From IMG/VR virus record IMGVR_UViG_2563366874_000012: 50,800 bases of DNA, one strand, 5' to 3'. Source of the stretch: a virus. Taxonomy: Duplodnaviria > Heunggongvirae > Uroviricota > Caudoviricetes. The position numbers were made by a program, and so were the translations under genes. Positions 17,734 to 34,348 of this stretch are shown one piece after another. Positions within the stretch are counted from its first letter, which is position 1, and each line of letters begins with the position of its first letter. A model generated the notes under the pieces. That model saw only the letters and a list, made by a program, of their open reading frames with translations, was not told the origin of the DNA and ran no database searches.

Positions 17734-18054
17734 CGTTGTTAGGCTCTGGAAACATCCTCGACTTCTTGTTAGCAAGCCTGAGAGCCTGAATCTTACACTT
17801 AGCACCATCCGAACTCTCGGAGGTGAGGCTTATGAAAATGCACAATGCCCCTCATTCCTGGCCTGACTTACTGGAACTCTTACAAAGTTGGTGGCGTGGA
17901 GATACGCCGCTGGGTGCAGTGGTTATGTCAATTATTATGGCTGGTTTGCGCATTGCCTATTTTGGCGGTGGCGGCGGCTGGAAACGAAAAACGCTTGAGA
18001 TTCTGCTTTGTGGTGCTCTGACGCTGACCTTTGCATCCGCGCTTGGATTTGCCC

Positions 18055-18960
18055 CTATATTTCCAGACATCTGTTATCACTTAACCCATTACAAGCCCGC
18101 TGCCGCAGATATTCCCGTGGCGAGCGATAACCCAGCGCACTATGCGGATGCCATTCGTTATAATGCTCGAACGCCTCTGCAAGGTTCTTTGCTGCCGTTA
18201 ACCCGTCTGGTTTGGGCATGATACTGATGTAGTCACGCTTTATCGTTTTCACGAAGCTCTCTGCTATTCCGTTACTCTCCGGACTCCGCACCGCCGTGTT
18301 CTTCGGTTCAAGTCCCAACATCCGGGCGAACTGGCGTGTTTCATTAGCCCGGTAGCATGAACCATTATCCGTCAGCCACTCCACTGGAGACGACGGAAGA
18401 TCGTTGCCGAAGCGGCGTTCCACCGCTCCCAGCATGACGTCCTGTACTGTTTCACTGTTGAAGCCGCCGGTAGTGACCGCCCAGTGCAGTGCCTCACGAT
18501 CACAGCAGTCCAGCGCGAACGTGACACGCAGTCTCTCTCCGTTATCACAGCAGAACTCGAACCCGTCAGAGCACCATCGCTGATTGCTTTCTTTCACGGC
18601 CACTCTGCCTGTATGTGCCCGTTTCGATGGCGGTACAGCAGGTTTTCGCTCAAGCAACAGCGCATTCTGGCGCATGATCCGGTAAACACGTTTGGCATTG
18701 ATCGCAGGCATACCATCAAGTTCTGCCTGTCTGCGAAGCAGCGCCCATACCCGACGATAACCATACGTTGGCAGCTCTCCGATAACATGGTGTATACGGA
18801 GAAGCACATCCGTATCATCAGTGTGACGACTGCGGCGGCCATCCATCCAGTCATCGGTTCGTCTGAGAATGACGTGCAACTGCGCACGCGACACCCGGAG
18901 ACAACGGCTGACTAAGCTTACTCCCCATCCCCGGGCAATAAGGGCGCGTGCGCTATCCAC
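18055..18960 (-). CDS. insD: IS2 transposase OrfB (InsD)
   Basis: 301-aa [49 protein letters not shown]... with DDE integrase-type core. Confidence 0.9.
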
Positions 18961-19283
18961 TTTTTTGCCCGTCCATATTCAACGGCTTCTTTGAGGAGTT
19001 CATTTTCCATCGTTTTCTTGCCGAGCAGGCGCTGGAGTTCTTTAATCTGCTTCATGGCGGCAGCAAGTTCAGAGGCAGGAACAACCTGTTCTCCGGCGGC
19101 GACAGCAGTAAGACTTCCTTCCTGGTATTGCTTACGCCAGAGAAATAACTGGCTGGCTGCTACACCATGTTGCCGGGCAACGAGGGAGACCGTCATCCCC
19201 GGTTCAAAGCTCTGCTGAACAATTGCGATCTTTTCCTGTGTGGTACGCCGTCTGCGTTTCTCCGGCCCTAAGACATCAATCAT
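18918..19283 (-). CDS. insC: IS2 OrfA (InsC) HTH protein
   Basis: 121-aa [59 protein letters not shown]... Confidence 0.9.
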
Positions 19284-19512
19284 CTGTTCTCCAATGACTA
19301 GTCTAAAAACTAGTATTAAGACTATCACTTATTTAAGTGATATTGGTTGTCTGGAGATTCAGGGGGCCAGTCTAGCGCTTGAGTATGTCGGATGGCCTAA
19401 ATCACTTTCTGTTGCCATTGGTGGTGGGGTGGGGCTGATTGGTGTTGATGCTATTCGTGGTGCGGCAATGAGGGTCATCGGTAACAAGTTCGGTGCCCAT
19501 AAGGAGTAATTA

Positions 19513-20450: not shown

Positions 20451-20587
20451 AATCTTAACTACAATATGATTCATTTTGATGATTGTTTCATAAGGAACAG
20501 TGAAGTAAGATCTAAGAGGAGTTAAATTTTATACAGTATAATCATAATATTGCAGCAAGGTGGTTATAATTGAAAGAATATTTAGAT

Positions 20588-22045
20588 ATGAATACATCTC
20601 ATGTAAGAGTTGTTACTCATATGTGTGGGTTCCTGGTTTGGCTCTATAGTCTTTCAATGTTGCCACCAATGGTTGTAGCATTGTTTTATAAAGAAAAAAG
20701 CCTGTTCGTTTTCTTTATAACTTTCGTTATATTTTTTTGCATTGGTGGCGGAGCGTGGTATACAACTAAGAAATCTGGCATTCAATTACGTACCCGTGAT
20801 GGGTTTATTATAATTGTAATGTTTTGGATTTTGTTTTCTGTTATTAGTGCATTCCCTTTATGGATTGACTCAGAACTTAATTTAACGTTCATTGATGCTC
20901 TGTTTGAAGGGGTTTCTGGAATAACAACAACAGGAGCAACTGTAATTGATGATGTTAGTTCATTACCTCGGGCATATTTGTACTATCGGTCACAGTTAAA
21001 TTTTATAGGTGGTTTAGGAGTTATTGTTCTGGCGGTTGCTGTATTGCCATTATTGGGTATTGGTGGTGCAAAGCTTTATCAGTCAGAAATGCCGGGGCCA
21101 TTTAAGGATGACAAACTCACTCCCCGCCTGGCCGATACGTCACGGACACTGTGGATAACTTATTCTTTATTAGGTATTGCTTGTATTGTCTGTTATAGAC
21201 TTGCAGGAATGCCTTTGTTTGATGCTATTTGTCACGGGATTTCCACAGTTTCGCTTGGTGGTTTCTCAACTCATAGCGAGAGTATCGGATATTTTAATAA
21301 CTATTTGGTTGAGCTGGTGGCTGGTTCTTTTTCCCTGCTATCGGCTTTCAACTTCACTCTTTGGTATATTGTTATTAGCAGGAAAACGATAAAACCTTTA
21401 ATCAGAGATATTGAACTTCGTTTCTTTCTGTTAATAGCCTTAGGGGTGATCATTGTTACCTCTTTCCAGGTCTGGCATATAGGTATGTATGACTTGCATG
21501 GAAGTTTTATTCATTCGTTTTTTCTTGCCAGCTCCATGCTCACTGATAATGGTTTAGCTACGCAGGATTATGCAAGTTGGCCCACGCACACGATAGTGTT
21601 TTTGCTGTTGTCAAGTTTCTTTGGGGGATGTATAGGTTCAACTTGTGGTGGAATTAAGTCACTTCGATTTCTTATACTTTTCAAACAAAGCAAACACGAG
21701 ATAAATCAGCTTTCTCATCCCAGAGCGTTGTTGAGTGTAAATGTAGGAGGGAAGATAGTTACAGATCGTGTAATGAGGTCTGTATGGAGTTTCTTTTTTC
21801 TTTATACTCTCTTCACGGTGTTTTTTATACTGGTGTTAAATGGTATGGGATATGATTTTCTTACATCATTTGCAACAGTGGCTGCATGTATTAATAATAT
21901 GGGATTAGGTTTTGGGGCTACTGCATCGTCATTCGGAGTGCTTAATGACATTGCAAAATGTTTAATGTGCATAGCTATGATTCTTGGTCGCCTTGAAATT
22001 TATCCTGTTATTATATTGTTTTCAGGTTTTTTTTGGCGCTCCTAA
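20588..22045 (+). CDS. trkG: TrkG potassium uptake membrane protein (Rac-encoded TrkH paralogue)
   Basis: 485-aa polytopic membrane protein MNTSHVRVVTHMCGFLVWLYSLSMLPPMVVALFYKEKS... with repeated TrkH-type pore segments; AT-rich; TATAAT at 20537-20542 upstream. Confidence 0.9.
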   Translation: MNTSHVRVVTHMCGFLVWLYSLSMLPPMVVALFYKEKSLFVFFITFVIFFCIGGGAWYTTKKSGIQLRTRDGFIIIVMFWILFSVISAFPLWIDSELNLTFIDALFEGVSGITTTGATVIDDVSSLPRAYLYYRSQLNFIGGLGVIVLAVAVLPLLGIGGAKLYQSEMPGPFKDDKLTPRLADTSRTLWITYSLLGIACIVCYRLAGMPLFDAICHGISTVSLGGFSTHSESIGYFNNYLVELVAGSFSLLSAFNFTLWYIVISRKTIKPLIRDIELRFFLLIALGVIIVTSFQVWHIGMYDLHGSFIHSFFLASSMLTDNGLATQDYASWPTHTIVFLLLSSFFGGCIGSTCGGIKSLRFLILFKQSKHEINQLSHPRALLSVNVGGKIVTDRVMRSVWSFFFLYTLFTVFFILVLNGMGYDFLTSFATVAACINNMGLGFGATASSFGVLNDIAKCLMCIAMILGRLEIYPVIILFSGFFWRS

Positions 22046-22182
22046 TATATGGCTGATTTATAATTGTGAGTTTAATATTATGTTGACTCACTCATTGATC
22101 CAATACCTAACTTTACCAGCAACACCTCCGTCCCCAGTAGCACTGGCTGCTGGGGTGCGTTTTATTCATAAAGCAAGGCTGT

Positions 22183-22974
22183 ATGAGCGAGAAATTAAAG
22201 ATAGTCTATCGCCCATTACAAGAATTGTCACCGTATGCGCACAACGCCAGGACGCACAGTACTGAGCAGGTGGCACAACTGGTAGAAAGTATTAAGCAAT
22301 TCGGCTGGACTAATCCGGTGCTGATTGACGAAAAGGGCGAAATTATTGCGGGTCACGGTCGTGTTATGGCGGCTGAAATGCTCAAAATGGATTCTGTTCC
22401 GGTCATTGTTCTGTCTGGCCTGACGGATGAGCAGAAAAAGGCGTACCGCCTGGCAGATAATCGCCTGCCGATGAATGCTGGCTGGGATGAAGATCTGTTG
22501 CGGATGGAGCTGTCGGACCTAATCAATGCTGATTTTGATGTCTCCCTGACAGGCTTCATCCCGACAGAAATTGATGAACTGTTGACGGATGTTTTGCCCG
22601 GTACAGGAAATGAGGAGGAGCCGTATACGACGAAAATTGATACGCCTGTTTATGAGCCGTCGGGCGGTAAACCGGATATCAGTGAACTGTACGACGATAC
22701 GAAAACTCAGGAGCTGATCAGCCGGATACGTTCGGCGTCCCTTGAGCCTGATATTGAGAAATTCCTCCTGTGTGCGGCAGAACGTCACACGGTGTTTAAT
22801 TTCAGCAGAATTGCGGACTATTACGCTCACGCCCCCTCTGAAATTCAGTGTTTTTTCGAGGAGTCGGCGCTGGTGATCATTGATTATCAGCAGGCTATTG
22901 AAAATGGATTTGTCCGGATGACGCAGCGCATGGTGGAGATCATGCATGGTGGTGAGGAGGAGGAATATGCGTGA
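22183..22974 (+). CDS. ynaK: ParB-like nuclease domain protein (YnaK-like)
   Basis: 263-aa ORF MSEKLKIVYRPLQELSPYAHNARTHSTEQVAQLVESIKQFGWTNPVLIDEKGEIIAGHGRVMAA (ParB N-terminal type motif); follows trkG as in Rac. Confidence 0.7.
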   Translation: MSEKLKIVYRPLQELSPYAHNARTHSTEQVAQLVESIKQFGWTNPVLIDEKGEIIAGHGRVMAAEMLKMDSVPVIVLSGLTDEQKKAYRLADNRLPMNAGWDEDLLRMELSDLINADFDVSLTGFIPTEIDELLTDVLPGTGNEEEPYTTKIDTPVYEPSGGKPDISELYDDTKTQELISRIRSASLEPDIEKFLLCAAERHTVFNFSRIADYYAHAPSEIQCFFEESALVIIDYQQAIENGFVRMTQRMVEIMHGGEEEEYA

Positions 22975-23899
22975 TGATTTTTGCGCCTTTATTCTGACTC
23001 ACGGGCGACCGGACAAAGTTCTGACTTACCGGACGTTGCGTCGTGCTGGCTATACCGGGAAAATTTTTATCGTTGTTGATGATGAAGATAAGACACGGCA
23101 TCAGTACATGGCTGAATTTGGTGAACAGGTGCTGGTGTTTTCCAAAGCCGATATCGCCAGTCGTTTTGACGAAGCCGATAATTTCTGTGACCGCCGCTCA
23201 ATTTTTTACGCCCGTAATGCCTGTTTCGACCTGGCAAAACTGGTCGGGTGTAAATACTTCATTCAGCTCGATGATGATTATCACGAGTTCCAGTTTCGGG
23301 TGGATCGCAACTATGACCAGGCCTATTTTCCGATAAGGAAACTGGATGCGATCCTTTCTGAAATGCTGGCGTACTACGAATCAATACCTGCTCTTTCCAT
23401 CGCTATGTCGCAGGGCGGGGATTTTCTTGGTGACAATGGCGGCCATGCTTCGTGGGTGAAACGCAAGGCAATGAACAGCTTTATCTGTTCGGTTGATCGA
23501 CCGTTCTCATTCATGGGGCGCATTAACGAGGATGTGAATACGTACACGAATCTCGGTCGCTGTGGTGAATTGTTTATGACGATCGGTGCTGTCCAGTTAG
23601 GGCAGAAACAGACGCAGAAAAACAGCGGCGGAATGACCGAGCTGTATCTGGATTCCGGAACCTACGTTAAAAGTTTTTACTCCGTCATGTATGCGCCGTC
23701 GTGCGTAAAAATCTCACTGATGGGTGCCAGCCATAAACGCATTCACCATCAGGTCACCTGGAACAACGCTGCAGTAAAAATCCTTCACGAAAAATACAGG
23801 AAGAAGACACCCTGCATATCAATGGGGGTGACAAATGATTCCGTATTCGAAAGTCGAGTCTCTGGCAGCGTGCCGGATGACTGCACAACAAATCGCTGA
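22967..23899 (+). CDS. Hypothetical protein with glycosyltransferase-A-like features (YdaY-like)
   Basis: 310-aa ORF MRDDFCAFILTHGRPDKVLTYRTLRRAGYTGKIFIVVDDEDK...YFIQLDDDYHEF (DxD-like motifs); GAGGAGG SD; overlaps ynaK end by 8 nt; fold assignment is a guess. Confidence 0.5.
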   Translation: MRDDFCAFILTHGRPDKVLTYRTLRRAGYTGKIFIVVDDEDKTRHQYMAEFGEQVLVFSKADIASRFDEADNFCDRRSIFYARNACFDLAKLVGCKYFIQLDDDYHEFQFRVDRNYDQAYFPIRKLDAILSEMLAYYESIPALSIAMSQGGDFLGDNGGHASWVKRKAMNSFICSVDRPFSFMGRINEDVNTYTNLGRCGELFMTIGAVQLGQKQTQKNSGGMTELYLDSGTYVKSFYSVMYAPSCVKISLMGASHKRIHHQVTWNNAAVKILHEKYRKKTPCISMGVTNDSVFESRVSGSVPDDCTTNR

Positions 23900-24086
23900 C
23901 GTTCTGGATGTTGATCTGAACCGACTGAAAGAAAATCGGGAAGCAATGACAGATTTTTATGCGGCCATCCGTAAGGGCAGAGCGAAAGGTGAAGCCGAGT
24001 TACGAGCGGCATTGTTTAAGCTTGCCAGAAAAGGGGATGCCTTTGCTCTGCGCGAACTACTCAGGGTGGATAAAAATCAGGACTAA
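23835..24086 (+). CDS. Small putative DNA-binding protein upstream of the terminase genes
   Basis: 83-aa ORF MIPYSKVESLAACRMTAQQIADVLDVDLNRLKENREAMTDFYAAIRKGRAKGEAELRAALFKLARKGD; GGGGGTG SD; overlaps upstream gene by 65 nt, so start is uncertain. Confidence 0.4.
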   Translation: MIPYSKVESLAACRMTAQQIADVLDVDLNRLKENREAMTDFYAAIRKGRAKGEAELRAALFKLARKGDAFALRELLRVDKNQD

Positions 24087-24089
24087 CTG

Positions 24090-25184
24090 ATGAGCAGACC
24101 GGACTGGGGGGCGTTGCAGCAGGAGTATATTGCTGAATACACCCGCTCCGGTATATCTCCGGTGGCATGGTGTGAAGCAAGGGGACTGAATTACGCAACA
24201 GCCCGTCGTTACATCAAAAAAACTCCGAAAAATGCGCAGACAGAAATGTGCAAAACTGCGCAAAAAAGTGCGCAGAAAAAATCTGCGCAGACTGCACAAA
24301 AGCGGAACGAAAAATCTCAGGAAAAAAAGCCAGTATTCGATGCGGGCCTGAATGAGGGCGACGCGGAGGAATTTTCGTTCTGTCCCGATGAATTCGGCAT
24401 TTCTGACCAGCAGGCTAAGTTTGCGATGCTTGTTGCTCAGGGTAAAAAGCCGACAGAGGCGTACCGACTAGCCGGTTATGAGGGGCAAGGTGCGACAGCT
24501 AATAGCAACGCCAGTCGTATGCTTAGAAATGCCAGGGTTTTTCGCGCTATCAGCTACTTCCGCAATCAGTACCAGAAACGCTATACCGCAGACCTGGATT
24601 TACTAGTGAGTCAGTTGATGGCCATTGTCCTGGCCGACCCCAATCAGCTTGCACAATTTCGCCGTGTTAACTGCCGTTATTGCTGGGGCGAGAATCATCT
24701 CTACCAGTGGCGCGATATAGCAGAATTCGACAAGGCAGCGGCGCAGGCTTCCAGAGATGGCAAACCCGAACCGGAATATGGAGGCCTCGGCTTTGTTGAT
24801 AACGCCATACCCAATCCGGACTGCCCGAAGTGCTGCGGTGAGGGAACGGGACAGCTTTATATGGCTGATACCACTCTGCTTGATGGGGATGCGCGGCAAT
24901 TATATGCAGGGGCAAAATTCGGAAAATTCGGCGTTGAGATCCTGCTGGAGGATAAGGCTGCCGCCCGGCGTGAATTGTTGCGTTTGCTTTCTGCTGGCGG
25001 GGCTTTATGTGCAGATAAGCGGCTACAGGAACTGGAAATTGAACGGCGCAGAATGGAAAACCAGAAGCTGCGCAAAGAGATCGAAACGGTGGAAGATAAT
25101 GAACATCCCCAGCCTGTGGCGATCAATATTAATGTGGTTGATGCCAGAGTAAGGAGTGATGAAGATGATCTCTCCGACGCTTAA
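24090..25184 (+). CDS. Terminase small subunit
   Basis: 364-aa ORF directly upstream of terminase large subunit; segment QQAKFAMLVAQGKKPTEAYRLAGYEGQGATANSNASRMLRN typical of small-terminase HTH. Confidence 0.65.
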   Translation: MSRPDWGALQQEYIAEYTRSGISPVAWCEARGLNYATARRYIKKTPKNAQTEMCKTAQKSAQKKSAQTAQKRNEKSQEKKPVFDAGLNEGDAEEFSFCPDEFGISDQQAKFAMLVAQGKKPTEAYRLAGYEGQGATANSNASRMLRNARVFRAISYFRNQYQKRYTADLDLLVSQLMAIVLADPNQLAQFRRVNCRYCWGENHLYQWRDIAEFDKAAAQASRDGKPEPEYGGLGFVDNAIPNPDCPKCCGEGTGQLYMADTTLLDGDARQLYAGAKFGKFGVEILLEDKAAARRELLRLLSAGGALCADKRLQELEIERRRMENQKLRKEIETVEDNEHPQPVAININVVDARVRSDEDDLSDA

Positions 25185-26466
25185 TGTGCCTCAGGCGCGA
25201 TTTCTTTCAATGCCCCATAAATTTAAAGCCTATATTGCTGGTTTTGGCTCGGGCAAAACATGGGTTGGGTGTGGCGGCATATGCAAGGGGATTTGGGAGC
25301 ATCCAGGTATAAATCAGGGATATTTTGCGCCAACGTATCCCCAAATTCGCGATATTTTTTACCCTACAGTGGAAGAAGTTGCTGATGACTGGGGATTGAA
25401 CGTAAAAATTAATGAGGGAAATAAAGAGGTTCACTTTTATTACGGACGCCAGTATCGGGGAACCACTATCTGCAGATCGATGGAGAAGCCACAAACGATC
25501 GTCGGTTTCAAAATTGGTAATGCGTTGGTGGATGAACTGGACATTTTGCCGAAGGAAAAAGCCAGAACGGCGTGGCGCAAGATAATTGCACGTATGCGTT
25601 ATAAGATTGATGGACTTCGCAACGGTATTGACGTTACAACCACGCCGGAAGGATTCAAATTTGTCTACGAGCAGTTTGTTAAAGCCGTGCGTGAAAAAAC
25701 AGAGCTGGCCTCACTGTATGGTCTGGTGCAGGCATCTACTTTCGATAATGAAAAGAACCTGCCAGCAGATTACATTCCTTCGCTTCTTGAATCATACCCT
25801 CCAGAGCTGATTAAAGCCTATCTTCGAGGACAGTTTACTAACCTGACAAGTGGTACTGTTTACCATCAGTTTGACCGGAAACTGAATAATTGCGAAGAAG
25901 TGGAGCAGCCAGGGGAGCCGATTTATATTGGGATGGATTTTAACGTTGGAAAGATGGCGGGAATCGTCCATGTGCTGCGTTTGGGGCTTCCATGTGCGGT
26001 AACTGAAATCATCAATGCCTACGATACGCCGGATATGATCCGCATCATTAAAGAACGCTTCTGGCTGTATGATGGGAATGATTACCGGAAAGTGAGGGAA
26101 ATTTATATTTATCCAGATGCTTCCGGGGATTCCAGAAAATCAAGTAACGCAAGTACGACGGATATAGCCCAGCTTAAGCAGGCTGGTTTTAACGTTGTGG
26201 TGAACAGCTCGAACCCGCCAGTAAAAGATCGCGTTAACTCAATGAATGCAATGTTCTGCAATGCCAATGGTGAGCGTCGCTATAAAGTTAATGTGAAGCG
26301 TTGCCCGTTATATGCCGAATCTCTGGAGCAACAGGTCTGGGATGAGAAGGGGGAGCCTGATAAAAAATCTGGCAATGATCACCCGAATGATGCCGGAGGT
26401 TATTTCATCGTTAAGCAATTCCCTATTGTCAAACCGACCGGAAGAGTCACATCACTTCGGATTTAA
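25156..26466 (+). CDS. Terminase large subunit (ATPase/nuclease)
   Basis: 436-aa ORF with Walker A YIAGFGSGKTW and Walker B-like VDELD; start may be a few codons downstream. Confidence 0.85.
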   Translation: MMKMISPTLNVPQARFLSMPHKFKAYIAGFGSGKTWVGCGGICKGIWEHPGINQGYFAPTYPQIRDIFYPTVEEVADDWGLNVKINEGNKEVHFYYGRQYRGTTICRSMEKPQTIVGFKIGNALVDELDILPKEKARTAWRKIIARMRYKIDGLRNGIDVTTTPEGFKFVYEQFVKAVREKTELASLYGLVQASTFDNEKNLPADYIPSLLESYPPELIKAYLRGQFTNLTSGTVYHQFDRKLNNCEEVEQPGEPIYIGMDFNVGKMAGIVHVLRLGLPCAVTEIINAYDTPDMIRIIKERFWLYDGNDYRKVREIYIYPDASGDSRKSSNASTTDIAQLKQAGFNVVVNSSNPPVKDRVNSMNAMFCNANGERRYKVNVKRCPLYAESLEQQVWDEKGEPDKKSGNDHPNDAGGYFIVKQFPIVKPTGRVTSLRI

Positions 26467-26468
26467 TT

Positions 26469-27875
26469 ATGGCTGATATATCAACACCCAACCTCGACTA
26501 TAACGATATGCTGGAGGCGTGGGATATTAACGACGCACTGATGGGCGGTACGCTTGAAATGCGCAGGCAGGGGGAAAATTATCTCCCAAAATGGCCTAAC
26601 GAAGATGAAGACGCTTATAAAAAACGCCTGTCTGTGGCTACGCTACTTCCTGTGTATGAAGAAAGCATCAAGCAAAATATTGGGCGCATATTTGCAGAGC
26701 CGACAGTATTGAGTGAGGAAACGCCGGCAAAAATCAGGGAATATGCAGAAAATATCGACATGGAGGGGAGCCGACTGGATGTGTGGGCGCAGCAATTTTT
26801 CAGCCTCGCATTTCAGTATGGTGTGGCACATGCGCTGGTGGACTATCCACGAACGGATATGAAAGAGATTCGGACAAAAGCCGATGAAAACGCGGCCGGT
26901 GGTCGTCCGTACGTTACGATGCTGAATCCACGCCAGGTTATTGGATGGAAATCGAAAGTTGAAAAAGGGAAAGTTGTTCTCACTGATTTGCGTATAAAAG
27001 AGGTCATCATTATTGATGGTGATGATTTCGGGCAGAAGAAGGTGGAGCAGATCCGCCATATTATGCCCCGTCGAGTTGAAATTTATCGACGTAGCGAAGG
27101 CACTAATGGCGAATCTGTCTGGACGCTTCATGAGTCATGGAATACCAGCCGTGATGATATTCCTCTGGTAACACTGTACACGAAGAAAACAGGATTTATG
27201 CGTGGTACACCGCCATTGCTTAATCTTGGCTTGCTGAATATCAAGCACTGGCAAAGCCAGAGCGAGCAGGACAATATTCTTCATGTTGCCCGCGTTCCAT
27301 TGCTGGTGGCCTACGGGCTGGACAGGAATGAAGAACTGACGGTTGGTGCATCCACCGCTACGATTTTTGAGGACAGAACAAAAAATGGCCTCGAATATGT
27401 TGAACATAGTGGCGCAGCGATAGAATCTGGCGAAACATCACTTGAGAAGCTGGAAAATCAGATGCGTCATGCCGGCGCTAAACTTCTGCGTGCTGAAAAT
27501 ACATCCACCAAATCTGTTGATCAGACTAATGAAGAGCGAATGCAGGAAAACTCGCCGCTTTATACAATGGCGAACTCCCTCGAAGATGCCCTCGATAATA
27601 TTCTCCAGATAATGGCGGAATGGATCGGAGAGAGTTGCGGTGGCAATGTGGATGTGCGCACTGAACTGGATGTATCTGCCCAGGTGTTTGACTCATCCTC
27701 CGCGCTGGCTGTTCAGTCATTGCGTCAGGGCGGTGATATACGTCAGATTGATGCGGTTCGGGTGTTGCAGGCGTTGAAATTTATCGATCAGGATTCCCGT
27801 CCAGAGGAAGTGATCGATGAATTAAAAAATCAGAGTGTAATGCTGATGGAAATCAATGATGCAAACCGTGAATGA
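26469..27875 (+). CDS. Portal protein
   Basis: 468-aa ORF immediately after terminase large subunit; size and position typical of a portal. Confidence 0.75.
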   Translation: MADISTPNLDYNDMLEAWDINDALMGGTLEMRRQGENYLPKWPNEDEDAYKKRLSVATLLPVYEESIKQNIGRIFAEPTVLSEETPAKIREYAENIDMEGSRLDVWAQQFFSLAFQYGVAHALVDYPRTDMKEIRTKADENAAGGRPYVTMLNPRQVIGWKSKVEKGKVVLTDLRIKEVIIIDGDDFGQKKVEQIRHIMPRRVEIYRRSEGTNGESVWTLHESWNTSRDDIPLVTLYTKKTGFMRGTPPLLNLGLLNIKHWQSQSEQDNILHVARVPLLVAYGLDRNEELTVGASTATIFEDRTKNGLEYVEHSGAAIESGETSLEKLENQMRHAGAKLLRAENTSTKSVDQTNEERMQENSPLYTMANSLEDALDNILQIMAEWIGESCGGNVDVRTELDVSAQVFDSSSALAVQSLRQGGDIRQIDAVRVLQALKFIDQDSRPEEVIDELKNQSVMLMEINDANRE

Positions 27876-28971
27876 ACGGCTGCGTGATGAATCAATTGCT
27901 CATGCAGTCTGGATATCCCGCTATAGCACTGGCGTGGCTGCCGGAATGGTGAAAATACTGAATGACAGCGATGCGGAACTTACTGCTCGCCTGCTGATAG
28001 CACTGGACAGCCTCGATCCAGGTAGTTTTACCGTTAAGCGCCTGGAGTCACTTCTGGCGAGCGTCAGAGAGGTTAACCGCACTGCTATTAACAGCATGTT
28101 TACCAGTCTCTCCGGAGAGCTGAACGAGCTGGCAATTTATGAGGCTGGTTATCAGTTAAGTCTGTTTGATTCTATGCTACCTGATTTTGTTGCTGATGTT
28201 CACCCTCTGGTTGGTATCTCTCCTGATGCACTTTATGCCGCTGCAATGGCGCGACCATTCCAGGGACGACTGCTCAGTGAGTGGGCCTCAGATCTTGAAG
28301 CGGATCGGCTCAGACGCATAACAAATACAGTGCGTCAGGGTTTTTTGCTGGGGGATACCAATGAGCAGATCGCAAGAAAAATTCGGGGACATGTCAGTAA
28401 GGGATTTCAGGATGGTGCATTGCAGATGAGCCGGGCTAATGCGGCCAGCATTGCAAAAACAGCGGTTGGACATCTTGCTGCTACTGCCCGTGAGAGTTTT
28501 GCCAGCGCGAATAATGATTTGATTAAGGGTAAGCAATGGTTATCAACGCTTGATAATCGTACTACGCCACAATGTCGAATCAGGGATCGCCTCAAATATA
28601 CGCTGAATAATAAACCTGTAGGTCACAGCGTGCCTTATTTGCAGGGGCCGGGAAAAATTCATTTCTGCTGCCGCTCAACGGAAACGTTCATTCTGAAATC
28701 AGCGAAGGAACTGGGTATTGATGTTCGCGATATTTCCCCGGCTGAGCGGGCCAGCATGGATGGCGTGGTGGCCGGAGATACAACCTACAGGGAATGGTTT
28801 TTGCGTCAGCCTTACACCAGACAAAAACAGATTGTGGGGGAAACCCGAGCAAAGCTGATTCGGGATGGTGGTATGTCGCCAGATGAATTTTACACCGATA
28901 AAGGCGAATGGCTGACGCTGAAGCAGCTCCGTGAGCGTGATGCACAGGTATTCAGAAAAGCAGGGATTTAA
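27856..28971 (+). CDS. Head morphogenesis protein (Mu F / SPP1 gp7-like)
   Basis: 371-aa ORF following the portal gene; assignment from position and recalled family features. Confidence 0.6.
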   Translation: MMQTVNERLRDESIAHAVWISRYSTGVAAGMVKILNDSDAELTARLLIALDSLDPGSFTVKRLESLLASVREVNRTAINSMFTSLSGELNELAIYEAGYQLSLFDSMLPDFVADVHPLVGISPDALYAAAMARPFQGRLLSEWASDLEADRLRRITNTVRQGFLLGDTNEQIARKIRGHVSKGFQDGALQMSRANAASIAKTAVGHLAATARESFASANNDLIKGKQWLSTLDNRTTPQCRIRDRLKYTLNNKPVGHSVPYLQGPGKIHFCCRSTETFILKSAKELGIDVRDISPAERASMDGVVAGDTTYREWFLRQPYTRQKQIVGETRAKLIRDGGMSPDEFYTDKGEWLTLKQLRERDAQVFRKAGI

Positions 28972-28990
28972 ATAAATCATTTATTACAAC

Positions 28991-29016
28991 AGGCTACCTT
29001 CGGGTGGCCTTTTTTA
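28991..29016 (+). terminator. Intrinsic terminator-like hairpin (UUCG loop)
   Basis: AGGCTACC-ttcg-GGTGGCCT followed by TTTTTT. Confidence 0.5.
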
Positions 29017-29075
29017 TTGCTGCGATCCGGATGGTGAGCAGCGTAACTGTCGGAAGACTTAAACCAGGTACTAAT

Positions 29076-29840
29076 ATGAAACTGAAAACGGTCGAGATTA
29101 ACGGAAAACAATACGCAGAAATTGATACTGCTGGCCTGCCAGTTTATGTGCACGACGATGGTAAAGAAATTGGCTTCGATGCACCGCTGGCGACAAAAAA
29201 AATTACAGAGCTTAATGGCGAGGCAAAAAATCATCGCCTGGCTAAAGAAGCTGCAGAGGAAAAACTGGCTAAGTTTGCCGCTATCGAAGACCCGAAGAAG
29301 GCGATCGAGGCACTGGAAATGCTGTCAAAAATCGACCAGAAAAAGCTGCTCGATGCGGGACAGGTTGACCAGGTTAAGGCAGAAATTACGAAAAATTTTC
29401 AGCAGCAATTAGATGAAGAAAAGCAACGCTCTCAGATGCTGGAGAAGCAGCTTTACGATTCTATGATTGGCGGTAGTTTTGCGGGTTCAAAATATATTGC
29501 CGATAAAATTGCGATCCCGGCAGATTTATTACAAGCCCGCTTCGGGCAGGCATTCAAAGTGGAAGAAGGGAGGATCGTTGCTTATGACGCTTCCGGCAAC
29601 AAAATTTATTCCCGCGCGAAGCCTGGCGAACTGGCGCAGTTTGATGAGGCGCTGGAGTTCCTTGTCGAAAATTACCCTCAGAAAGACTACATCCTGAAAG
29701 CCAGTGGCAACAATGGCGGCGGCTCCCGTCCGACACAGCATGATATTGGTCAGAAAACGATGAAACGCTCTGCTTTTGATGCACTGGATGTTGCAGGTAA
29801 GCAAAACGCATTGAAAGACGGTATCACAATCGTTGATTAA
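29076..29840 (+). CDS. Scaffolding protein (putative)
   Basis: 254-aa hydrophilic, charged ORF MKLKTVEINGKQYAEIDTAGLPVYVHDDGKEIGF... directly upstream of the major capsid gene; the frame opens further upstream, so the start is uncertain. Confidence 0.55.
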   Translation: MKLKTVEINGKQYAEIDTAGLPVYVHDDGKEIGFDAPLATKKITELNGEAKNHRLAKEAAEEKLAKFAAIEDPKKAIEALEMLSKIDQKKLLDAGQVDQVKAEITKNFQQQLDEEKQRSQMLEKQLYDSMIGGSFAGSKYIADKIAIPADLLQARFGQAFKVEEGRIVAYDASGNKIYSRAKPGELAQFDEALEFLVENYPQKDYILKASGNNGGGSRPTQHDIGQKTMKRSAFDALDVAGKQNALKDGITIVD

Positions 29841-29938
29841 CACATTTGTCAGCTTCCGGATGGGAGCTGGTGTCAGGGCTGGATAGCTCATTACTCCATC
29901 TATTCACAATTACGCAAATTTTTAAGGAATATTTAATT

Positions 29939-31078
29939 ATGGCTGGAAATACCCTGACCGGGTTGATCCCGACTATTTATACCGCCCTGGATGTTGTATC
30001 CCGTGAGCAGGTAGGTTTTATCCCTGCGGTAGCAAAAAACGCAAAAGCTGACGCCGCAGCAAAAGATCAGACGGTAACCGCGCCAGTTGCGCCTGAGGCG
30101 AAAACCGAAGATATCGTACCGGGGCCGTCAGCTCCGAATACCGGTGATCAAAATATTGGCACTGTTGATGTAAAAATTACTAAATCCAAAATGGCACCGG
30201 TTAAATGGAATGGTGAAGAACAACTGGCTCTTGGCCCTTCAGGGACTTACAACACCATTCTGGCTGATCAGTTCAAGCAGGCTTTTCGCGCCCTTGCAAA
30301 CGAGGTTGAGGCTGATCTTGGTGCGTTGTATTTCGGTGCTTCCCGCGCCGTGGGAACCGCAGGGACAACGCCGTTTGGTGTTAAAGATGATCTTTCTGAT
30401 GCTGCTCTGGCTCGTCAGGTTCTGGAGGATAACGGCGCACCGACAACCGATCTGCAGATGGTGCTTGGCTCCACTGCCATTGCTAATTTGCGCGGAAAAC
30501 AGTCTGTATTGTTTAAAGTGAATGAATCCGGCACTGAACAGCTACTGCGTGAGGGCGTGTTGGGGCGTCTGGAGGGATTCAATATTCACAGTTCGGCAGG
30601 TGTGAAACGAGCGCCAAAGGTTGCTGCAACTGGTTATCTCGTGAATGGAGAGAAAAAAGAAGGCGATGTTCTTATTTCCATTGATACTGGTTCGGGGAGT
30701 ATTTCTGCAGGTCAGATTGTTACGTTCGCTGGTGATCCGAATCAGTATGTTGTGGCAGCAGCGACCAGCAATCTGATTACTCTTGCAGCGCCCGGACTGC
30801 GTCAGGATCTGGCCGATGATACTGCCATCACAGTTGTTGGGGCCTTTACTGCAAATATGGCGTTTGATCGCAACGCGTTTCTGCTGGCATCCCGTACTCC
30901 GGCAATGCCGGAAGGTGGCGATAATGCTGATGATGTAATGAATGTTACGGACCCGATTTCAGGGATTACGTTCCAGATTGCACTGTATCGTCAGTATCGC
31001 CAGGTGCGCTATGAAGTTGGACTGGCATGGGGTGTTTCATCAGTGAAGCCGGCACATGGTTGTCTGATTCTTGGTTAA
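29939..31078 (+). CDS. Major capsid protein
   Basis: 379-aa ORF MAGNTLTGLIPTIYTALDVVSREQVGFIPAVAKNAK...; AAGGAAT SD; followed by terminator hairpin. Confidence 0.8.
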   Translation: MAGNTLTGLIPTIYTALDVVSREQVGFIPAVAKNAKADAAAKDQTVTAPVAPEAKTEDIVPGPSAPNTGDQNIGTVDVKITKSKMAPVKWNGEEQLALGPSGTYNTILADQFKQAFRALANEVEADLGALYFGASRAVGTAGTTPFGVKDDLSDAALARQVLEDNGAPTTDLQMVLGSTAIANLRGKQSVLFKVNESGTEQLLREGVLGRLEGFNIHSSAGVKRAPKVAATGYLVNGEKKEGDVLISIDTGSGSISAGQIVTFAGDPNQYVVAAATSNLITLAAPGLRQDLADDTAITVVGAFTANMAFDRNAFLLASRTPAMPEGGDNADDVMNVTDPISGITFQIALYRQYRQVRYEVGLAWGVSSVKPAHGCLILG

Positions 31079-31088
31079 ACATTCAAAC

Positions 31089-31108
31089 GGGGCTTCGGCC
31101 CCATTTTT
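31089..31108 (+). terminator. Intrinsic terminator after capsid gene
   Basis: GGGGC-ttcg-GCCCC followed by ATTTTT. Confidence 0.55.
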
Positions 31109-31120
31109 AATGGGGGGCAT

Positions 31121-31297
31121 ATGGCCGGATTAACTAAAGAGCAAAGAGCACAGCGTGAAGCCGCACAAAAAACGCAAATTGAGTTAGTGGTTATGGTGAC
31201 CGATTATCAGATGTTTCCCGGCGCACCAACTATCGCTAATGTTCATCCTGATGAAGTTGACAACTGGAAGGCTATGGGCTGGAAAACTCAGGAGTAA
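31121..31297 (+). CDS. Possible 58-aa small protein between capsid and connector genes
   Basis: MAGLTKEQRAQREAAQKTQIELVVMVTDYQMFPGAPTIANVHPDEVDNWKAMGWKTQE; below ORF-track size cut-off. Confidence 0.3.
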   Translation: MAGLTKEQRAQREAAQKTQIELVVMVTDYQMFPGAPTIANVHPDEVDNWKAMGWKTQE

Positions 31298-31300
31298 CAC

Positions 31301-31696
31301 ATGATCACTTACGTGACCTGTGATGACGTTGATAATGCGTTTGGGAACGCCTGGACGAGTGAGAACGCTAAAAATAAAGCTGTTTTAATGGCTAATGCCT
31401 GGCTTAATGGCTTCAACCTGAAAATTAACCCATCCCGTATTCCGGAAGAGGTAAAACTTGCGGGAGCATATGCAGCCAGAATTGCCTCATTCGGTAAGTT
31501 GTTTCAGCAGAAAAATGATTCTGGCGTTGTTATCAGTAAAGCCGTGTCGGCTGACGGGGTCAGTGTATCGAAATCATTTTCTGAGTTGCCAGCAAACAGC
31601 ACTGCATTGCTTGAACCCGATTTACAGCTTGCGATAGCACTGCTGAAACAGTACGGACTTAGTCGCTCACAAGTCAGGGTTGTGAGGGGGGGATAA
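31301..31696 (+). CDS. Head-tail connector / head completion protein
   Basis: 131-aa ORF, first of four small co-directional, mostly overlapping-stop/start genes between capsid and major tail genes. Confidence 0.55.
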   Translation: MITYVTCDDVDNAFGNAWTSENAKNKAVLMANAWLNGFNLKINPSRIPEEVKLAGAYAARIASFGKLFQQKNDSGVVISKAVSADGVSVSKSFSELPANSTALLEPDLQLAIALLKQYGLSRSQVRVVRGG

Positions 31697-32079
31697 TGGG
31701 GCTTCGTGACGAGATTCAGTCAGAGGTTGCCGCTGCTTTTGATGAGGATTTAGCGGACGCCGTGAGTGATTTTTCTGGTTCTTACGTTACGCACCGGCAC
31801 TGGGATCCTGTGACGGAAACTGGCGGCGAATCCACCGCAATCTATACCGGGCGAGGCGTGTTGACACGTTATAAGCTGGGCAGAATTGATGGGATTAATA
31901 TTTTGCATGGTGACCTTAAATTAACCGCTCTGGTATGCGAGGTTACGGATAAACCAGCTGTCGACCATATTATTGAGATTTATGATCCTGTATCAAGGCA
32001 GTTACAACGATACGAGGTAATTACAGCAAGTGTAGATCCTTCCGCATCAGTTTACTCTATCCAGTTAAGGAGAGCGTAA
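31696..32079 (+). CDS. Head-tail joining protein
   Basis: 127-aa ORF, TAATG coupling to upstream gene. Confidence 0.5.
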   Translation: MGLRDEIQSEVAAAFDEDLADAVSDFSGSYVTHRHWDPVTETGGESTAIYTGRGVLTRYKLGRIDGINILHGDLKLTALVCEVTDKPAVDHIIEIYDPVSRQLQRYEVITASVDPSASVYSIQLRRA

Positions 32080-32460
32080 ATGGCAAAGGCATGGGATATA
32101 GAACCGTCAATATTTGCCGGGATGATTGAGGAAGATGTAGGGCTGAAGATTCGCTACATCGCTATTCAGATTCTTACTGCTATTGATATTGCTGCTCCGG
32201 TTGATACCGGACGTTTCAGAAATAACAACCTGGTGTCGTTACAGCATCCCGATTTTGGTATATCTGATAACGTGGATCCGAACGGTACGATTGCTGTTCA
32301 GCGTGGGATCGGGGTTATTTCGAAAGCTGCAAATTACGGGGTTATTTATATCCAGAATAACCTTCCTTATGCAGAGGCTCTTGAAAACGGTCATTCACAA
32401 CAAGCGCCAACTGGCGTGTATGCCAACGCTTTTCATGGTGTTTTACAGGCTTACAAATGA
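32080..32460 (+). CDS. Tail completion / head-tail adaptor protein
   Basis: 126-aa ORF in the head-tail joining cluster. Confidence 0.5.
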   Translation: MAKAWDIEPSIFAGMIEEDVGLKIRYIAIQILTAIDIAAPVDTGRFRNNNLVSLQHPDFGISDNVDPNGTIAVQRGIGVISKAANYGVIYIQNNLPYAEALENGHSQQAPTGVYANAFHGVLQAYK

Positions 32461-32849
32461 AGTTTACTGAAATCAGAAATACGGTTATTTCCAGAATGAC
32501 GGCACAGACGATTATTGATGGAAAAGACGTATTGTATCCGAACGGGCCAACGTTCGATCCTTCCGGTAAGTTAATCTGGGCGCGGTTAAGTAATATTCCC
32601 GGGCAAGCTGGAGTTAATGAAATTGGCGCGGGGCCGGTTGTTTATCGCACGGGGATAATCATTATTCAGTTATTTGTCCCCGCAGGTTCTGGTTCAAAAC
32701 TCATTACTGAGACAGCCGATAAATTGCGGGAACTGTTTGAGTTTCAGGATGACGATCGTCTCAGTTACCAGGCTGTTTCCTCAATAGCCGTCGGCGAAAA
32801 GAATGGCTGGTTCCAGCTTAATCTTCAAATTCCATATCGCGCGCTCTAG
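32457..32849 (+). CDS. Tail terminator-type protein
   Basis: 130-aa ORF, ATGA overlap with upstream gene, immediately before the major tail gene. Confidence 0.5.
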   Translation: MKFTEIRNTVISRMTAQTIIDGKDVLYPNGPTFDPSGKLIWARLSNIPGQAGVNEIGAGPVVYRTGIIIIQLFVPAGSGSKLITETADKLRELFEFQDDDRLSYQAVSSIAVGEKNGWFQLNLQIPYRAL

Positions 32850-32875
32850 CGCAATTAATGACATAGGAGGCTCCT

Positions 32876-33838
32876 GTGAGTTCAGGTGCAAAGGTTATCT
32901 CGGCATTTATCCGGGAGACAGTTGCAGGCACTACGCCAGCAAGTGGTGACTGGAGTTTATTAAAACGCACAAGCTGGGGAGTAAAACCCACCCAGAATAA
33001 AGGCGAAAATAATGAGATTGGTGGCTCCCGGATGGCTCAGGGGGCGACGCCTGGCACTGTGGATGTCGGCGGTGATGTTGGTACCAAATTTCGCTGGGGT
33101 CAACATGATGATTTTCTTGCATCCTGTTTCGGCGCGGAATGGTCAGGCGATTCTCTGACAATGGGGAATGAGCGAATAACATTTTCTCTGGCGACCTATG
33201 CGTCCGATGTCGGAATTGCCTCTGTCGTCAGAGGAGCGCAGGTTGGCTCATGGAAAATGCAGATCCCTAACGACGGCGATATTACAGCGACCGTAACCTT
33301 TGCCGGGCTGGGCTGGGAATCAAAGGCCGATGATACGAATTTTATCAAAGGCGAACCTGTGGATAGTGCAGGAAAGTTACGCTATTCGTTTAAGGCGGTT
33401 TCAGCAGTAAGCCTGAATGGTGTTGCCGGAGGTAACGGTTTTTGTATCGACAGTTTTGATATTCAGTTCGATAACAAACTCCAGACACAGCGTTGTATCG
33501 GGACTGGCTCGCCTTATGCAGGAGCAAATATTCCGACTACTTTTACACCGTCCGGTACGGTGACGCTTTCATGGTCTAAAGCCGCGTGGGAAATCTGGAG
33601 TAAAACACTGACTGGAGAAACAGTTCCGTTCAGCTTCACGCTTTCGAATGGAGAGGGGGCATACACTTTCAGTTTCCCGAAGGTTCAGGTGTCAGGTGAA
33701 TGGCCTGATGGGGGTAATACTGACATTATCCAGGTTCAATTGAGCATTACCGCAGCAGATGAAGCACCTACGATAACCAGAAAAAAATGCTCCCCGACTG
33801 CCGTGATCGCAAAAGCCAGTGCTGATGCGATTAGTTGA
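32876..33838 (+). CDS. Major tail (tube) protein
   Basis: 320-aa Gly/Thr/Ser-rich ORF MSSGAKVISAFIRETVAGTTPASGDWSLLKRTSWG... upstream of the tail chaperone G/GT pair. Confidence 0.65.
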   Translation: MSSGAKVISAFIRETVAGTTPASGDWSLLKRTSWGVKPTQNKGENNEIGGSRMAQGATPGTVDVGGDVGTKFRWGQHDDFLASCFGAEWSGDSLTMGNERITFSLATYASDVGIASVVRGAQVGSWKMQIPNDGDITATVTFAGLGWESKADDTNFIKGEPVDSAGKLRYSFKAVSAVSLNGVAGGNGFCIDSFDIQFDNKLQTQRCIGTGSPYAGANIPTTFTPSGTVTLSWSKAAWEIWSKTLTGETVPFSFTLSNGEGAYTFSFPKVQVSGEWPDGGNTDIIQVQLSITAADEAPTITRKKCSPTAVIAKASADAIS

Positions 33839-33850
33839 TTTTCCGTTATT

Positions 33851-33877
33851 CCCCCTGTGGTACTGCACTACAGGGGG
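33851..33877 (+). repeat. Hairpin-forming inverted repeat after major tail gene
   Basis: CCCCCTGT-ggtactgcact-ACAGGGGG; no U-run, possibly an RNA stability element. Confidence 0.4.
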
Positions 33878-33898
33878 ACGCATTGAATGAGGTTATGG

Positions 33899-34348
33899 AT
33901 GTTTATTCTTAATCAGAAAATTATCATCGGTGGAGAACGCTGGTTTACGCCAATGAAGGACTTAAAACCTATAGACGGGTTAAAACTGTTGGTGGCAAGC
34001 AGCGATAACGATCAGTATCGCTCCCGTAATGCATTAATCCGTCGTCACATTGAGAAAATGGATGCCAGTTTGCACGTCGGAACGAAGGAGTTTGATATTT
34101 CAAAGGTTTCCGAGGTAGATTCTGTTGATGATTTACTCATTGATAATGCTGCTCGTTATCTGCTGAAAGACTGGAAAGGGGTTGGTGAACTGGTTAATGG
34201 TGCTGAGGTTGCACTGGAATATACGCCAGAACGAGGGATCGCGCTGCTTAAGCAGAATCCAGAGTTGTACTGGCAGATCCTTGCAGAAGCAGCCAGCATC
34301 GCCCAGGGTAAAGAGCAGCAGAAGCAGGATACGATAAAAAAGCCATAG
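33899..34348 (+). CDS. Tail assembly chaperone G
   Basis: About 150-aa ORF ending ...QQKQDTIKKP*; GAGG upstream of ATG 33899 (frame opens at 33887); slippery heptamer near its 3' end. Confidence 0.6.
   Translation: MFILNQKIIIGGERWFTPMKDLKPIDGLKLLVASSDNDQYRSRNALIRRHIEKMDASLHVGTKEFDISKVSEVDSVDDLLIDNAARYLLKDWKGVGELVNGAEVALEYTPERGIALLKQNPELYWQILAEAASIAQGKEQQKQDTIKKP
34336..34342 (+). other. Programmed -1 ribosomal frameshift slippery site A_AAA_AAG (G to GT)
   Basis: In the G frame the codons are AAA (34337-34339) and AAG (34340-34342), preceded by A34336; the -1 frame is open from 34312 through 34656. Confidence 0.6.

Follow-up and report, generated by a model that had tools for sequence, protein, structure and literature searches.

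Introduction

A subclass of phage thymine dioxygenases needs a cognate ParB-like protein to act on double-stranded DNA (dsDNA) (O'Toole et al., PNAS 2026, PMC13229309). The ParB-like protein ParB176 described there consists of a nucleotide-binding domain (NBD), a helix-helix segment, a disordered linker of approximately 50 amino acids (aa) and a C-terminal domain (CTD), carries no DNA-binding helix-turn-helix (HTH) domain, and has its nearest structural relatives among the CTP-binding chromosomal ParBs. Here we analyze a gene pair at positions 22183–23899 of IMG/VR virus record IMGVR_UViG_2563366874_000012 (Caudoviricetes), a stretch of 50,800 nucleotides that was examined as a whole and is called the window below. 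The first gene, full-length ynaK, encodes a 263-aa ParB-like protein (hereafter the partner), and the second a 310-aa glycosyltransferase (GT) of the TAGT family. We find that the partner ends in a so far unannotated CTD that is linked to the GT in essentially every locus sampled, and we give about even chances to the reading that the 2 proteins form a ParB-assisted two-component DNA glycosyltransferase made late in infection.

The pair resembles 5mYOX176/ParB176 in that a phage enzyme gene stands beside a cognate ParB-like gene, in the architecture of the partner (likened here by the described domain layout), and in that terminases and GTs are frequent neighbors of that system. It differs from it in the partnered enzyme, which here is of the GT-A type and not an Fe(II)/2-oxoglutarate 5-methylpyrimidine dioxygenase, none of which is present, and in the CTD, which in this family also exists without an NBD. 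The prophage-enriched fusions of ParB to N6/N4 DNA methyltransferases (PHROG 498; PADLOC MTase_II; Kaljevic 2025) contain the same NBD subtype, but the enzyme of our pair is a separate polypeptide that would be joined via the CTD, and the predicted transfer is glycosyl instead of methyl.

Characterized TAGT relatives acting on DNA are the T2/T6 second-glucose transferase, the JGT-like phage GT-A enzymes, and the 5mYOX-associated GTs. The T2/T6 enzyme (beta-glucosyl-HMC-alpha-glucosyltransferase) has the PF20691 domain, the GT-A fold, and the DxD motif in common with the GT of the window, but it adds a second glucose to glucosyl-5-hydroxymethylcytosine, which is made by a dCMP hydroxymethylase and an alpha-GT, and neither gene is present in the window. 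The 5mYOX/TET-associated phage GT-A enzymes and the trypanosome base-J glucosyltransferase JGT (Burke 2021; Pyle 2023/2024) have the same R...DDD...ED pattern, occur in sequential-GT or tailoring cassettes and act post-replicatively on DNA, as we propose for this pair. However, these systems use 5-hydroxymethylcytosine or 5-hydroxymethyluracil from an adjacent dioxygenase, whereas this clade has an obligate ParB-CTD partner instead. GREB1 shares the TAGT glycosyltransferase domain and is the source of the name 'GREB1-related protein' that PGAP gives to the 310-aa GT where it is not called 'hypothetical'. This name reflects domain homology only, since GREB1 is a large eukaryotic protein of several domains whose O-GlcNAcylation target is a nuclear receptor and the phage GT is a single-domain protein.

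Already known are the TAGT family, the assistance of ParB proteins in DNA modification, and the fact that phage GTs frequently have ParB and terminase genes nearby, and a proposal of the Aravind group, as relayed in later papers, holds that ParB proteins steer modification machinery to DNA during packaging (Iyer 2013, via Burke 2021 and O'Toole 2026). TAGTs without a dioxygenase or hydroxymethylase occur in 288 of 753 TAGT-encoding phage genomes according to one paper, and approximately 65% of some 25,000 GT contigs lack such a neighbor according to another; the literature of 2024–2026 calls the function of these dioxygenase-free TAGTs undefined. Our literature search found no description of the pair analyzed here or of its obligate CTD partner.

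Results

The 2 overlapping genes are under purifying selection

An earlier note, made from the sequence alone, had described the locus as a 263-aa protein with a ParB N-terminal domain followed, with an 8-nt overlap, by a 310-aa GT-A-like protein with a DxD motif just upstream of the terminase genes, and on all these points our analysis agrees with it (Table 1). The partner matched Pfam ParB_N with 29.3 bits (cutoff 26.3) and PHROG 620 over its full length (1e-90), and the GT matched Pfam TAGT (PF20691) with 122.3 bits (cutoff 27.5, E 3.4e-35, model positions 4–205 of 205) and PHROG 842 (6e-104). The mechanical list of open reading frames (ORFs) gives the GT as a 317-aa protein starting at the ATG at 22946. 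We placed the start at 22967 because homologues begin with MRDDFCAF, which corresponds to this position, and because a Shine-Dalgarno ribosome-binding site (GAGGAGGAGGA) is found just 5' of this ATG. The overlap and the upstream GAGGAGGAGGA site imply that translation of the 2 genes is probably coupled, and the overlapping layout is seen in most homologous loci. When compared with orthologues that are 79–90% identical, the ratio of non-synonymous to synonymous substitution rates (dN/dS) was 0.06–0.09 for the GT and 0.09–0.15 for the partner; both genes are thus under strong purifying selection, which together with the thousands of homologues shows that these ORFs are genuine and did not arise by chance.

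The second protein is a GT-A glycosyltransferase of the TAGT family

Alignment of the GT with 20 homologues (60–82% identity) revealed R14, D38/D41, D102-D103-D104-Y105, N187-E188-D189, G221-G222-M223-T224, and H260-H261 as invariant. By sequence inspection, R14...D102DD...E188D agrees with the R...DDD...ED(Y/F) pattern of the JGT-like phage GT-A enzymes, the third residue after ED being Val instead of Tyr/Phe, with Y193 close by. The last approximately 22 residues form a lineage-specific tail, overlapping the next small ORF, that is absent from homologues outside Escherichia. AlphaFold2 models built on shallow alignments reached a pLDDT of 64 for the GT and 63 for the partner, with poor C-terminal halves, and the GT model was confident for residues 1–150 only. 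Foldseek searches of the PDB with the GT model, the structural check that the earlier note had proposed, retrieved GT-A enzymes (chondroitin polymerase, SpsA, glycogenin, SunS/ThuS, and ColGalT1, with 2z87 among the entries), and the top matches in the viral structure library BFVD were TAGT-domain proteins. The GT had no sequence relative in the PDB and no match in PADLOC, and confident homology to a family other than glycosyltransferases was not seen. A tblastn search of 50,697 phage records with the GT returned 36 records at E<=1e-5. Because no T-even phage is among them, the product name of PHROG 842, which is that of the T2/T6 enzyme, appears to be an over-extended transfer.

Several of the structural matches would fit proteins as acceptors. 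In such a scenario, which we consider unlikely, the GT would modify most plausibly its own partner at the invariant Tyr/Thr of the linker motif described below, in a glycogenin- or GREB1-like manner, or else another protein of phage or host that the partner presents. Glycogenin, SunS/ThuS, and ColGalT1 are protein or peptide modifiers, and GREB1, itself a TAGT family member, O-GlcNAcylates the estrogen receptor ER-alpha. However, the fold matches are at the generic GT-A level (TM 0.3–0.4).

The partner contains a ParB-type nucleotide-binding domain, a conserved linker motif and an unannotated C-terminal domain

In alignments with Spo0J and ParB, Box I (QPR) of the NBD of the partner reads N21-A-R23, Box II (GERR) G57-H58-G59-R60, and Box III D92-N93. 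The phosphate-binding residues R60, R23, and N93 are thus kept, while His stands in place of the catalytic Glu and Asn in place of the Box I Gln. Foldseek placed the NBD nearest to CTP/CDP-bound ParB, Noc, PadC, and KorB, with no match of the rest of the protein to a solved ParB, and by sequence the NBD belongs to the subtype that is fused to DNA methyltransferases (PHROG 498, 9e-51; N-terminus of PADLOC MTase_II, 1.5e-38). The partner has no HTH DNA-binding domain (TIGR00180 38.1, cutoff 58.45), no parA is found nearby in the annotation of the window, and no parS-like inverted repeat was detected near the pair. Together with the altered GERR box, these features characterize the partner, at the level of sequence, as something other than a canonical ParABS ParB. 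The label 'nuclease' that the ParB-like protein had been given in the earlier note is without support, as no nuclease family matched the protein in Pfam, PHROG, NCBIfam, or PADLOC, no nuclease motif was found, and the nearest relatives of the NBD are the CTP-binding proteins named above and the methyltransferase-fused ParBs.

The linker that follows is predicted to be disordered (pLDDT <50 for aa 137–170) and contains the motif Y-T-x-K-I-x-x-P-x-Y-E-P, which is kept in bacterial and archaeal virus partners. All 147 family representatives have the Tyr of P-x-Y-E-P. That the only protein always occurring with the GT has such an unvarying Tyr, in a linker modeled with low confidence, would fit glycosylation of the partner itself. 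However, linear motifs of this invariance are just as characteristic of docking peptides, and the methyltransferase-fused subtype of the NBD and the replication and packaging contexts of the pair favor DNA over a protein.

The C-terminal part of the partner forms a helical domain with the conserved cores AAxRH, YYAH, and SALVIID, which no Pfam or NCBIfam model matches. An exhaustive search with the CTD only yielded 1,189 cluster representatives (50% identity clusters, E<=1e-3). The CTD is always C-terminal, either in proteins of 250–300 aa or as a stand-alone protein of 130–200 aa, and ParB_N is the sole recurrent N-terminal domain attached to it. Stand-alone CTD ORFs were found in Vibrio phage pv27, in locus L187, and in approximately 20 viral contigs.

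The C-terminal domain and the glycosyltransferase occur together across viruses of bacteria and archaea

Since the best 80 loci of the GT scans of viral contigs were near-identical Rac relatives only, we used species-dereplicated genomes and divergent partner queries to analyze the linkage between the CTD and the GT. Starting from the GT, the partner was directly upstream, and usually overlapping, in all 33 divergent loci, which include 4 metagenomic neighborhoods and 27 GTDB species and span Enterobacterales, Bacteroides, Lachnospiraceae, Desulfovibrionaceae, Prosthecochloris, Hyphomonadaceae, Thiotrichales, and others. With a divergent partner as the query, the GT was the next gene in 31 of 33 loci, and the 2 exceptions are ParB proteins without the CTD. 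Among 88 further CTD loci, the GT was immediately downstream in 82 and, after checking, present in all 88; in the remaining 6, it was cut by the contig end, missed by the ORF rule, located approximately 1 kb off, or present in 2 copies around a stand-alone CTD. The adjacency of CTD and GT is therefore essentially absolute in both search directions over approximately 150 sampled loci, and it is this second domain of the partner, obligately linked to the GT, that the earlier note had missed.

The GT is 43–57% identical across bacterial phyla and a haloarchaeal virus, and a Porphyromonas phage keeps the pair with a GT of 27% identity. The pair was also found in Lactobacillus phages c5, LL-Ku, Ld17, and phi jlb1, in Nocardia phage NTR1, and in 190-kb Vibrio phages. 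Genes 21 and 22 of the haloarchaeal virus HHTV-2 (L195 6196–7858) form an overlapping pair with a GT 43% identical to that of E. coli, which implies that the module has probably been transferred between viruses of 2 domains. The pair is a mobile module.

Pairs are located next to unrelated terminases or within replication modules

Pairs with a full-length partner are mostly located just upstream of TerS/TerL, and in phage c5 they are ORF1/ORF2 and adjoin cos. This position could suggest a role in packaging, with the ParB-like protein as a nuclease or as an organizer of the pac or cos site for the terminase and the GT-like protein as a structural or regulatory component. We find this very improbable, because the neighboring terminases belong to at least 5 unrelated families (Terminase_3, Terminase_6N, TerL_ATPase, GpA, and T7-type), the pair and TerL of HHTV-2 are 8 genes apart, and CTD-only pairs lie mostly in replication modules, far from terminases. 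In locus L187 (3306–7962), a CTD-only partner of 134 aa and the GT are located between PolA and a beta-clamp homologue, and in Vibrio phage pv27 (L196 6459–7888), a CTD-only partner of 139 aa and the GT are found among SSB, primase, and helicase genes. Scanning 75 ORFs in the CTD-only neighborhoods of 14 loci detected DnaB 5 times, PolA 3 times, and DnaA_C 3 times, in addition to SSB and ERF. Moreover, the GT retains the invariant catalytic DDD under strong selection, and the partner resembles CTP-binding ParBs in its NBD and shows no nuclease motif. The possibility raised in the earlier note that both proteins are packaging accessories is thus not borne out by these loci.

Besides the E. coli module, which is the minimal two-gene form, expanded cassettes were found with the orders ParB-GT-radicalSAM, ParB-GT-GT-radicalSAM, ParB-GT-GT, and ParB-GT::methyltransferase-GT. 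The last one, from Hyphomonadaceae (L192 2614–6161), encodes the ParB partner, a 564-aa protein that joins a TAGT to a class-I SAM methyltransferase domain, and a second TAGT, which suggests that its product may be a methylated di-saccharide. Radical-SAM enzymes of 280–322 aa, one of them with a SPASM domain, are encoded directly 3' of ParB-GT or ParB-GT-GT in 5 metagenomic phage contigs (L235, L246, L272, L258, and L282) and have oxygen-independent preparation of the acceptor or tailoring of the sugar as possible roles. Radical-SAM/SPASM neighbors occur in pathways for ribosomally synthesized and post-translationally modified peptides too, which would also suit a protein acceptor.

The pair is part of a Rac-type prophage and is disrupted by a deletion in K-12

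The window is an E. coli Rac-type prophage with intR, xisR, recET, racC, kilR, sieB, ydaS/T/U/V, and trkG. Of 5,426 complete E. coli genomes, 867 (about one in six) contain at least 80% of the 2-kb pair region, as do 10 deposited phage records. The earlier note had equated the 310-aa gene with ydaY of K-12, which is ruled out by direct alignment of K-12 with the window. Homology ends at 22436 and restarts at 33997, and the K-12 deletion thus corresponds to positions 22437–33996 (11.6 kb). Its left junction is inside ynaK, of which approximately 85 codons are left as the K-12 remnant of the pair, and its right junction is just before the ydaY homologue (approximately 33997). The GT, terminase, portal, capsid, and proximal tail genes were lost with it, and ydaY of K-12 matches a small gene located between those for the tail tube and the tape measure.

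In some genomes (L001 20084–20341; L003 22546–22803), PGAP labels the intact 263-aa ynaK as a pseudogene of approximately 258 nt ('incomplete, missing C-terminus'), likely because the truncated 87-aa K-12 protein served as the reference, and the CTD is therefore unannotated in those genomes. Furthermore, many E. coli proteins in the databases consist of partner residues 1–150/165 fused to fragments of Lom, tail-fiber, C40-peptidase, or TerL proteins (P0194, P0195, P0202, P0206, P0216, P0227, and P0235, for example). These fusions indicate that, as Rac prophages decay, deletions with one end in ynaK have probably arisen repeatedly and independently.

Upstream of the pair are trkG and the lysis genes. 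The GC content of the trkG block (20570–22155) is 34–40%, compared with approximately 48% in its flanks, which is consistent with trkG being a moron that was independently acquired between the lysis cassette and the pair. A strong terminator-like hairpin separates trkG from the pair, and no distinctive promoter was found near the pair, which we read as a probable part of the late operon. This location also bears on the idea that the GT modifies a host envelope glycan in seroconversion or superinfection exclusion, as prophage GtrABC or TarP do, which we regard as most improbable. Prophage GT-A enzymes such as TarP do modify surface polymers, and TarP was a top PDB match for phage GT-A enzymes in Pyle et al. 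However, a place in the late operon behind a hairpin, the presence of the pair in the virulent phage c5 and in viruses of Gram-negative, Gram-positive, and archaeal hosts with unrelated envelopes, and a ParB-fold partner where a membrane or flippase partner is absent all argue for another function.

Compared with a reference Rac-type prophage, the lambda-family holin gene contains an insertion of 1,329 bp (18046–19374) that encodes an IS3-type transposase, with the rve integrase core ORF at 18055–18960 on the minus strand. Lysis is probably defective in this copy of the prophage, and the insertion sequence (IS) may exert polar effects on the late operon holding the pair. Downstream of the GT, the small ORF at 23835–24086 matches a fragment of the TerS family phrog_309 (8e-23). 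In the 5' part of the TerS gene (24215–24291), AAAAA(N)TGCGCAGA occurs in 3 direct copies and as a dyad, which could be a pac or TerS recognition site.

Table 1. Coordinates in the window of the gene pair, of its domains and motifs, and of flanking features.
Feature	Position	Strand	Basis
Partner gene, full-length ynaK; 263 aa, acidic (isoelectric point 4.5)	22183-22974	+	ORF; Pfam ParB_N; PHROG 620
ParB/Srx-fold NBD and helix-helix segment (aa 1-135)	22183-22587	+	Alignments; Foldseek; PADLOC; PHROG 498
Linker motif Y148-T-T-K-I-D-T-P-V-Y157-E-P	22624-22659	+	Conservation; linker predicted disordered
GT-linked CTD (~aa 165-255), helical	22675-22947	+	Motifs FLxxAAERHTVFNF, IADYYAHA, SALVIIDYxQAIENGF
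Stop/start overlap of partner and GT genes, 8 nt, ATGCGTGA	22967-22974	+	Sequence
TAGT-family GT-A glycosyltransferase gene; 310 aa	22967-23899	+	Pfam PF20691; PHROG 842; alignment
Codons of the invariant D102-D103-D104 metal/NDP-sugar (DxD) motif, GATGATGAT	23270-23278	+	Sequence; alignment
Terminator-like hairpin between trkG moron and pair	22132-22155	+	Sequence
Small HTH-like ORF; 83 aa (69 aa by PGAP from 23877)	23835/23877-24086	+	Context
TerS	24090-25184	+	Context
TerL	25156-26466	+	Context; portal gene next

Discussion

In the mechanism that we propose, the 310-aa GT would be the catalytic GT-A enzyme, using a nucleoside diphosphate (NDP)-sugar and the DDD metal site, and the 263-aa partner would be dedicated to it, binding or activating the GT through the CTD and the Y-T-x-K...P-x-Y-E-P linker motif. 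The NBD of the partner would engage dsDNA, perhaps as a clamp gated by a nucleoside triphosphate (NTP), so that the GT acts on the replicated phage genome shortly before or during packaging; versions without the NBD would act within the replication module. The added sugar would shield virion DNA from host nucleases or label it against them. The physical interaction of partner and GT, DNA as the acceptor, and the anti-restriction role are what we infer from the following observations. The partner has the architecture of the dioxygenase-activating ParBs (NBD, helix-helix segment, disordered linker, CTD, and no HTH), its CTD is linked to the GT in a near absolute manner, purifying selection is strong, and the expanded cassettes resemble published phage DNA-hypermodification clusters. 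DNA is suggested as the acceptor by the chemistry of the TAGT family, the characterized relatives of which act on DNA, by the NBD subtype in common with DNA methyltransferase fusions, and by the replication and packaging contexts of the pairs. In addition, the identity retained by the GT across phyla and in an archaeal virus, next to unrelated terminases and structural neighbors, points to a universal acceptor such as DNA and not to a host-specific glycan or virion protein.

A universal metabolite would also account for this cross-domain conservation. The GT could then modify a soluble small molecule, such as a nucleotide, an immune signal derived from one, or a precursor, with the ParB fold supplying or sensing the nucleotide. 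The ParB-CTPase fold binds diverse NTPs, and some of its members are small-molecule kinases (SerK, Srx). However, CTD-only partners without an NBD still keep the GT, the TAGT family offers no precedent for such a substrate, and the genomic contexts are centered on DNA, and we therefore consider this alternative improbable.

Several observations weigh against DNA glycosylation by the pair, with the acceptor as the main weakness. Every characterized TAGT that acts on DNA requires a hydroxyl acceptor, the product of a TET/JBP dioxygenase or a hydroxymethylase. We found no TET/JBP dioxygenase, dCMP/dUMP hydroxymethylase, or DNA methyltransferase in the window by PGAP annotation and Pfam searches of its unannotated early ORFs, the annotation of phage c5 (complete genome, 31.8 kb) likewise gives no dioxygenase, hydroxymethylase, or DNA methyltransferase, and neither a dioxygenase nor a hydroxymethylase is among the neighbor Pfam families listed for approximately 55 dereplicated loci, at a listing limit below which single occurrences may fall. 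A dioxygenase hidden among the early ORFs of the window was considered and rejected, these ORFs being SieB, DUF1627, DUF977, KilA-N, DUF1971, DUF1367, DUF1133/Q-like, and an IS integrase. Pyle et al. regard GT contigs without a 5mYOX or ThyS neighbor as 'less likely' DNA hypermodifiers, and GREB1 sets a precedent within the TAGT family for glycosylation of a protein. The lack of a source of hydroxymethyl bases in the window and in phage c5 likewise speaks for a protein as the acceptor. As for the partner, its family is strongly acidic (isoelectric point 4.0–4.7) and without a recognizable DNA-binding domain, no parS-like repeat accompanies the pair, and the poor C-terminal halves of both AlphaFold models let neither a DNA-binding surface nor an interface be seen. 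The suggestion of the earlier note that the pair serves DNA modification is thus reasonable as far as characterized TAGT members glycosylate DNA, but the enzyme that would make the acceptor was not found in the window.

One way to reconcile DNA glycosylation with these findings is that the ParB-loaded GT is self-sufficient and sugars DNA without prior hydroxymethylation, the acceptor being a canonical base or another native group of DNA; we put this forward tentatively, as a doubtful possibility. In the expanded cassettes of phages of anaerobes, the acceptor site might instead be prepared by the radical-SAM enzyme in place of an O2-dependent dioxygenase.

Our results show that one large clade of dioxygenase-free TAGTs is not truly solitary, but has an obligate partner whose unannotated CTD defines the system. 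If the pair is read as a two-component DNA glycosyltransferase, ParB assistance in DNA modification would extend, as a principle, from dioxygenases to glycosyltransferases. The minimal pair in the tractable E. coli makes directly testable what a GT glycosylates without a hydroxymethyl base. If the acceptor is DNA, the product would be a new base modification, with bearing on restriction evasion, sequencing artefacts, and DNA-labelling tools. If direct glycosylation of DNA holds true, an undescribed modification would be encoded by Rac-type prophages in approximately one sixth of complete E. coli genomes and by phages of many bacterial phyla and of haloarchaea.

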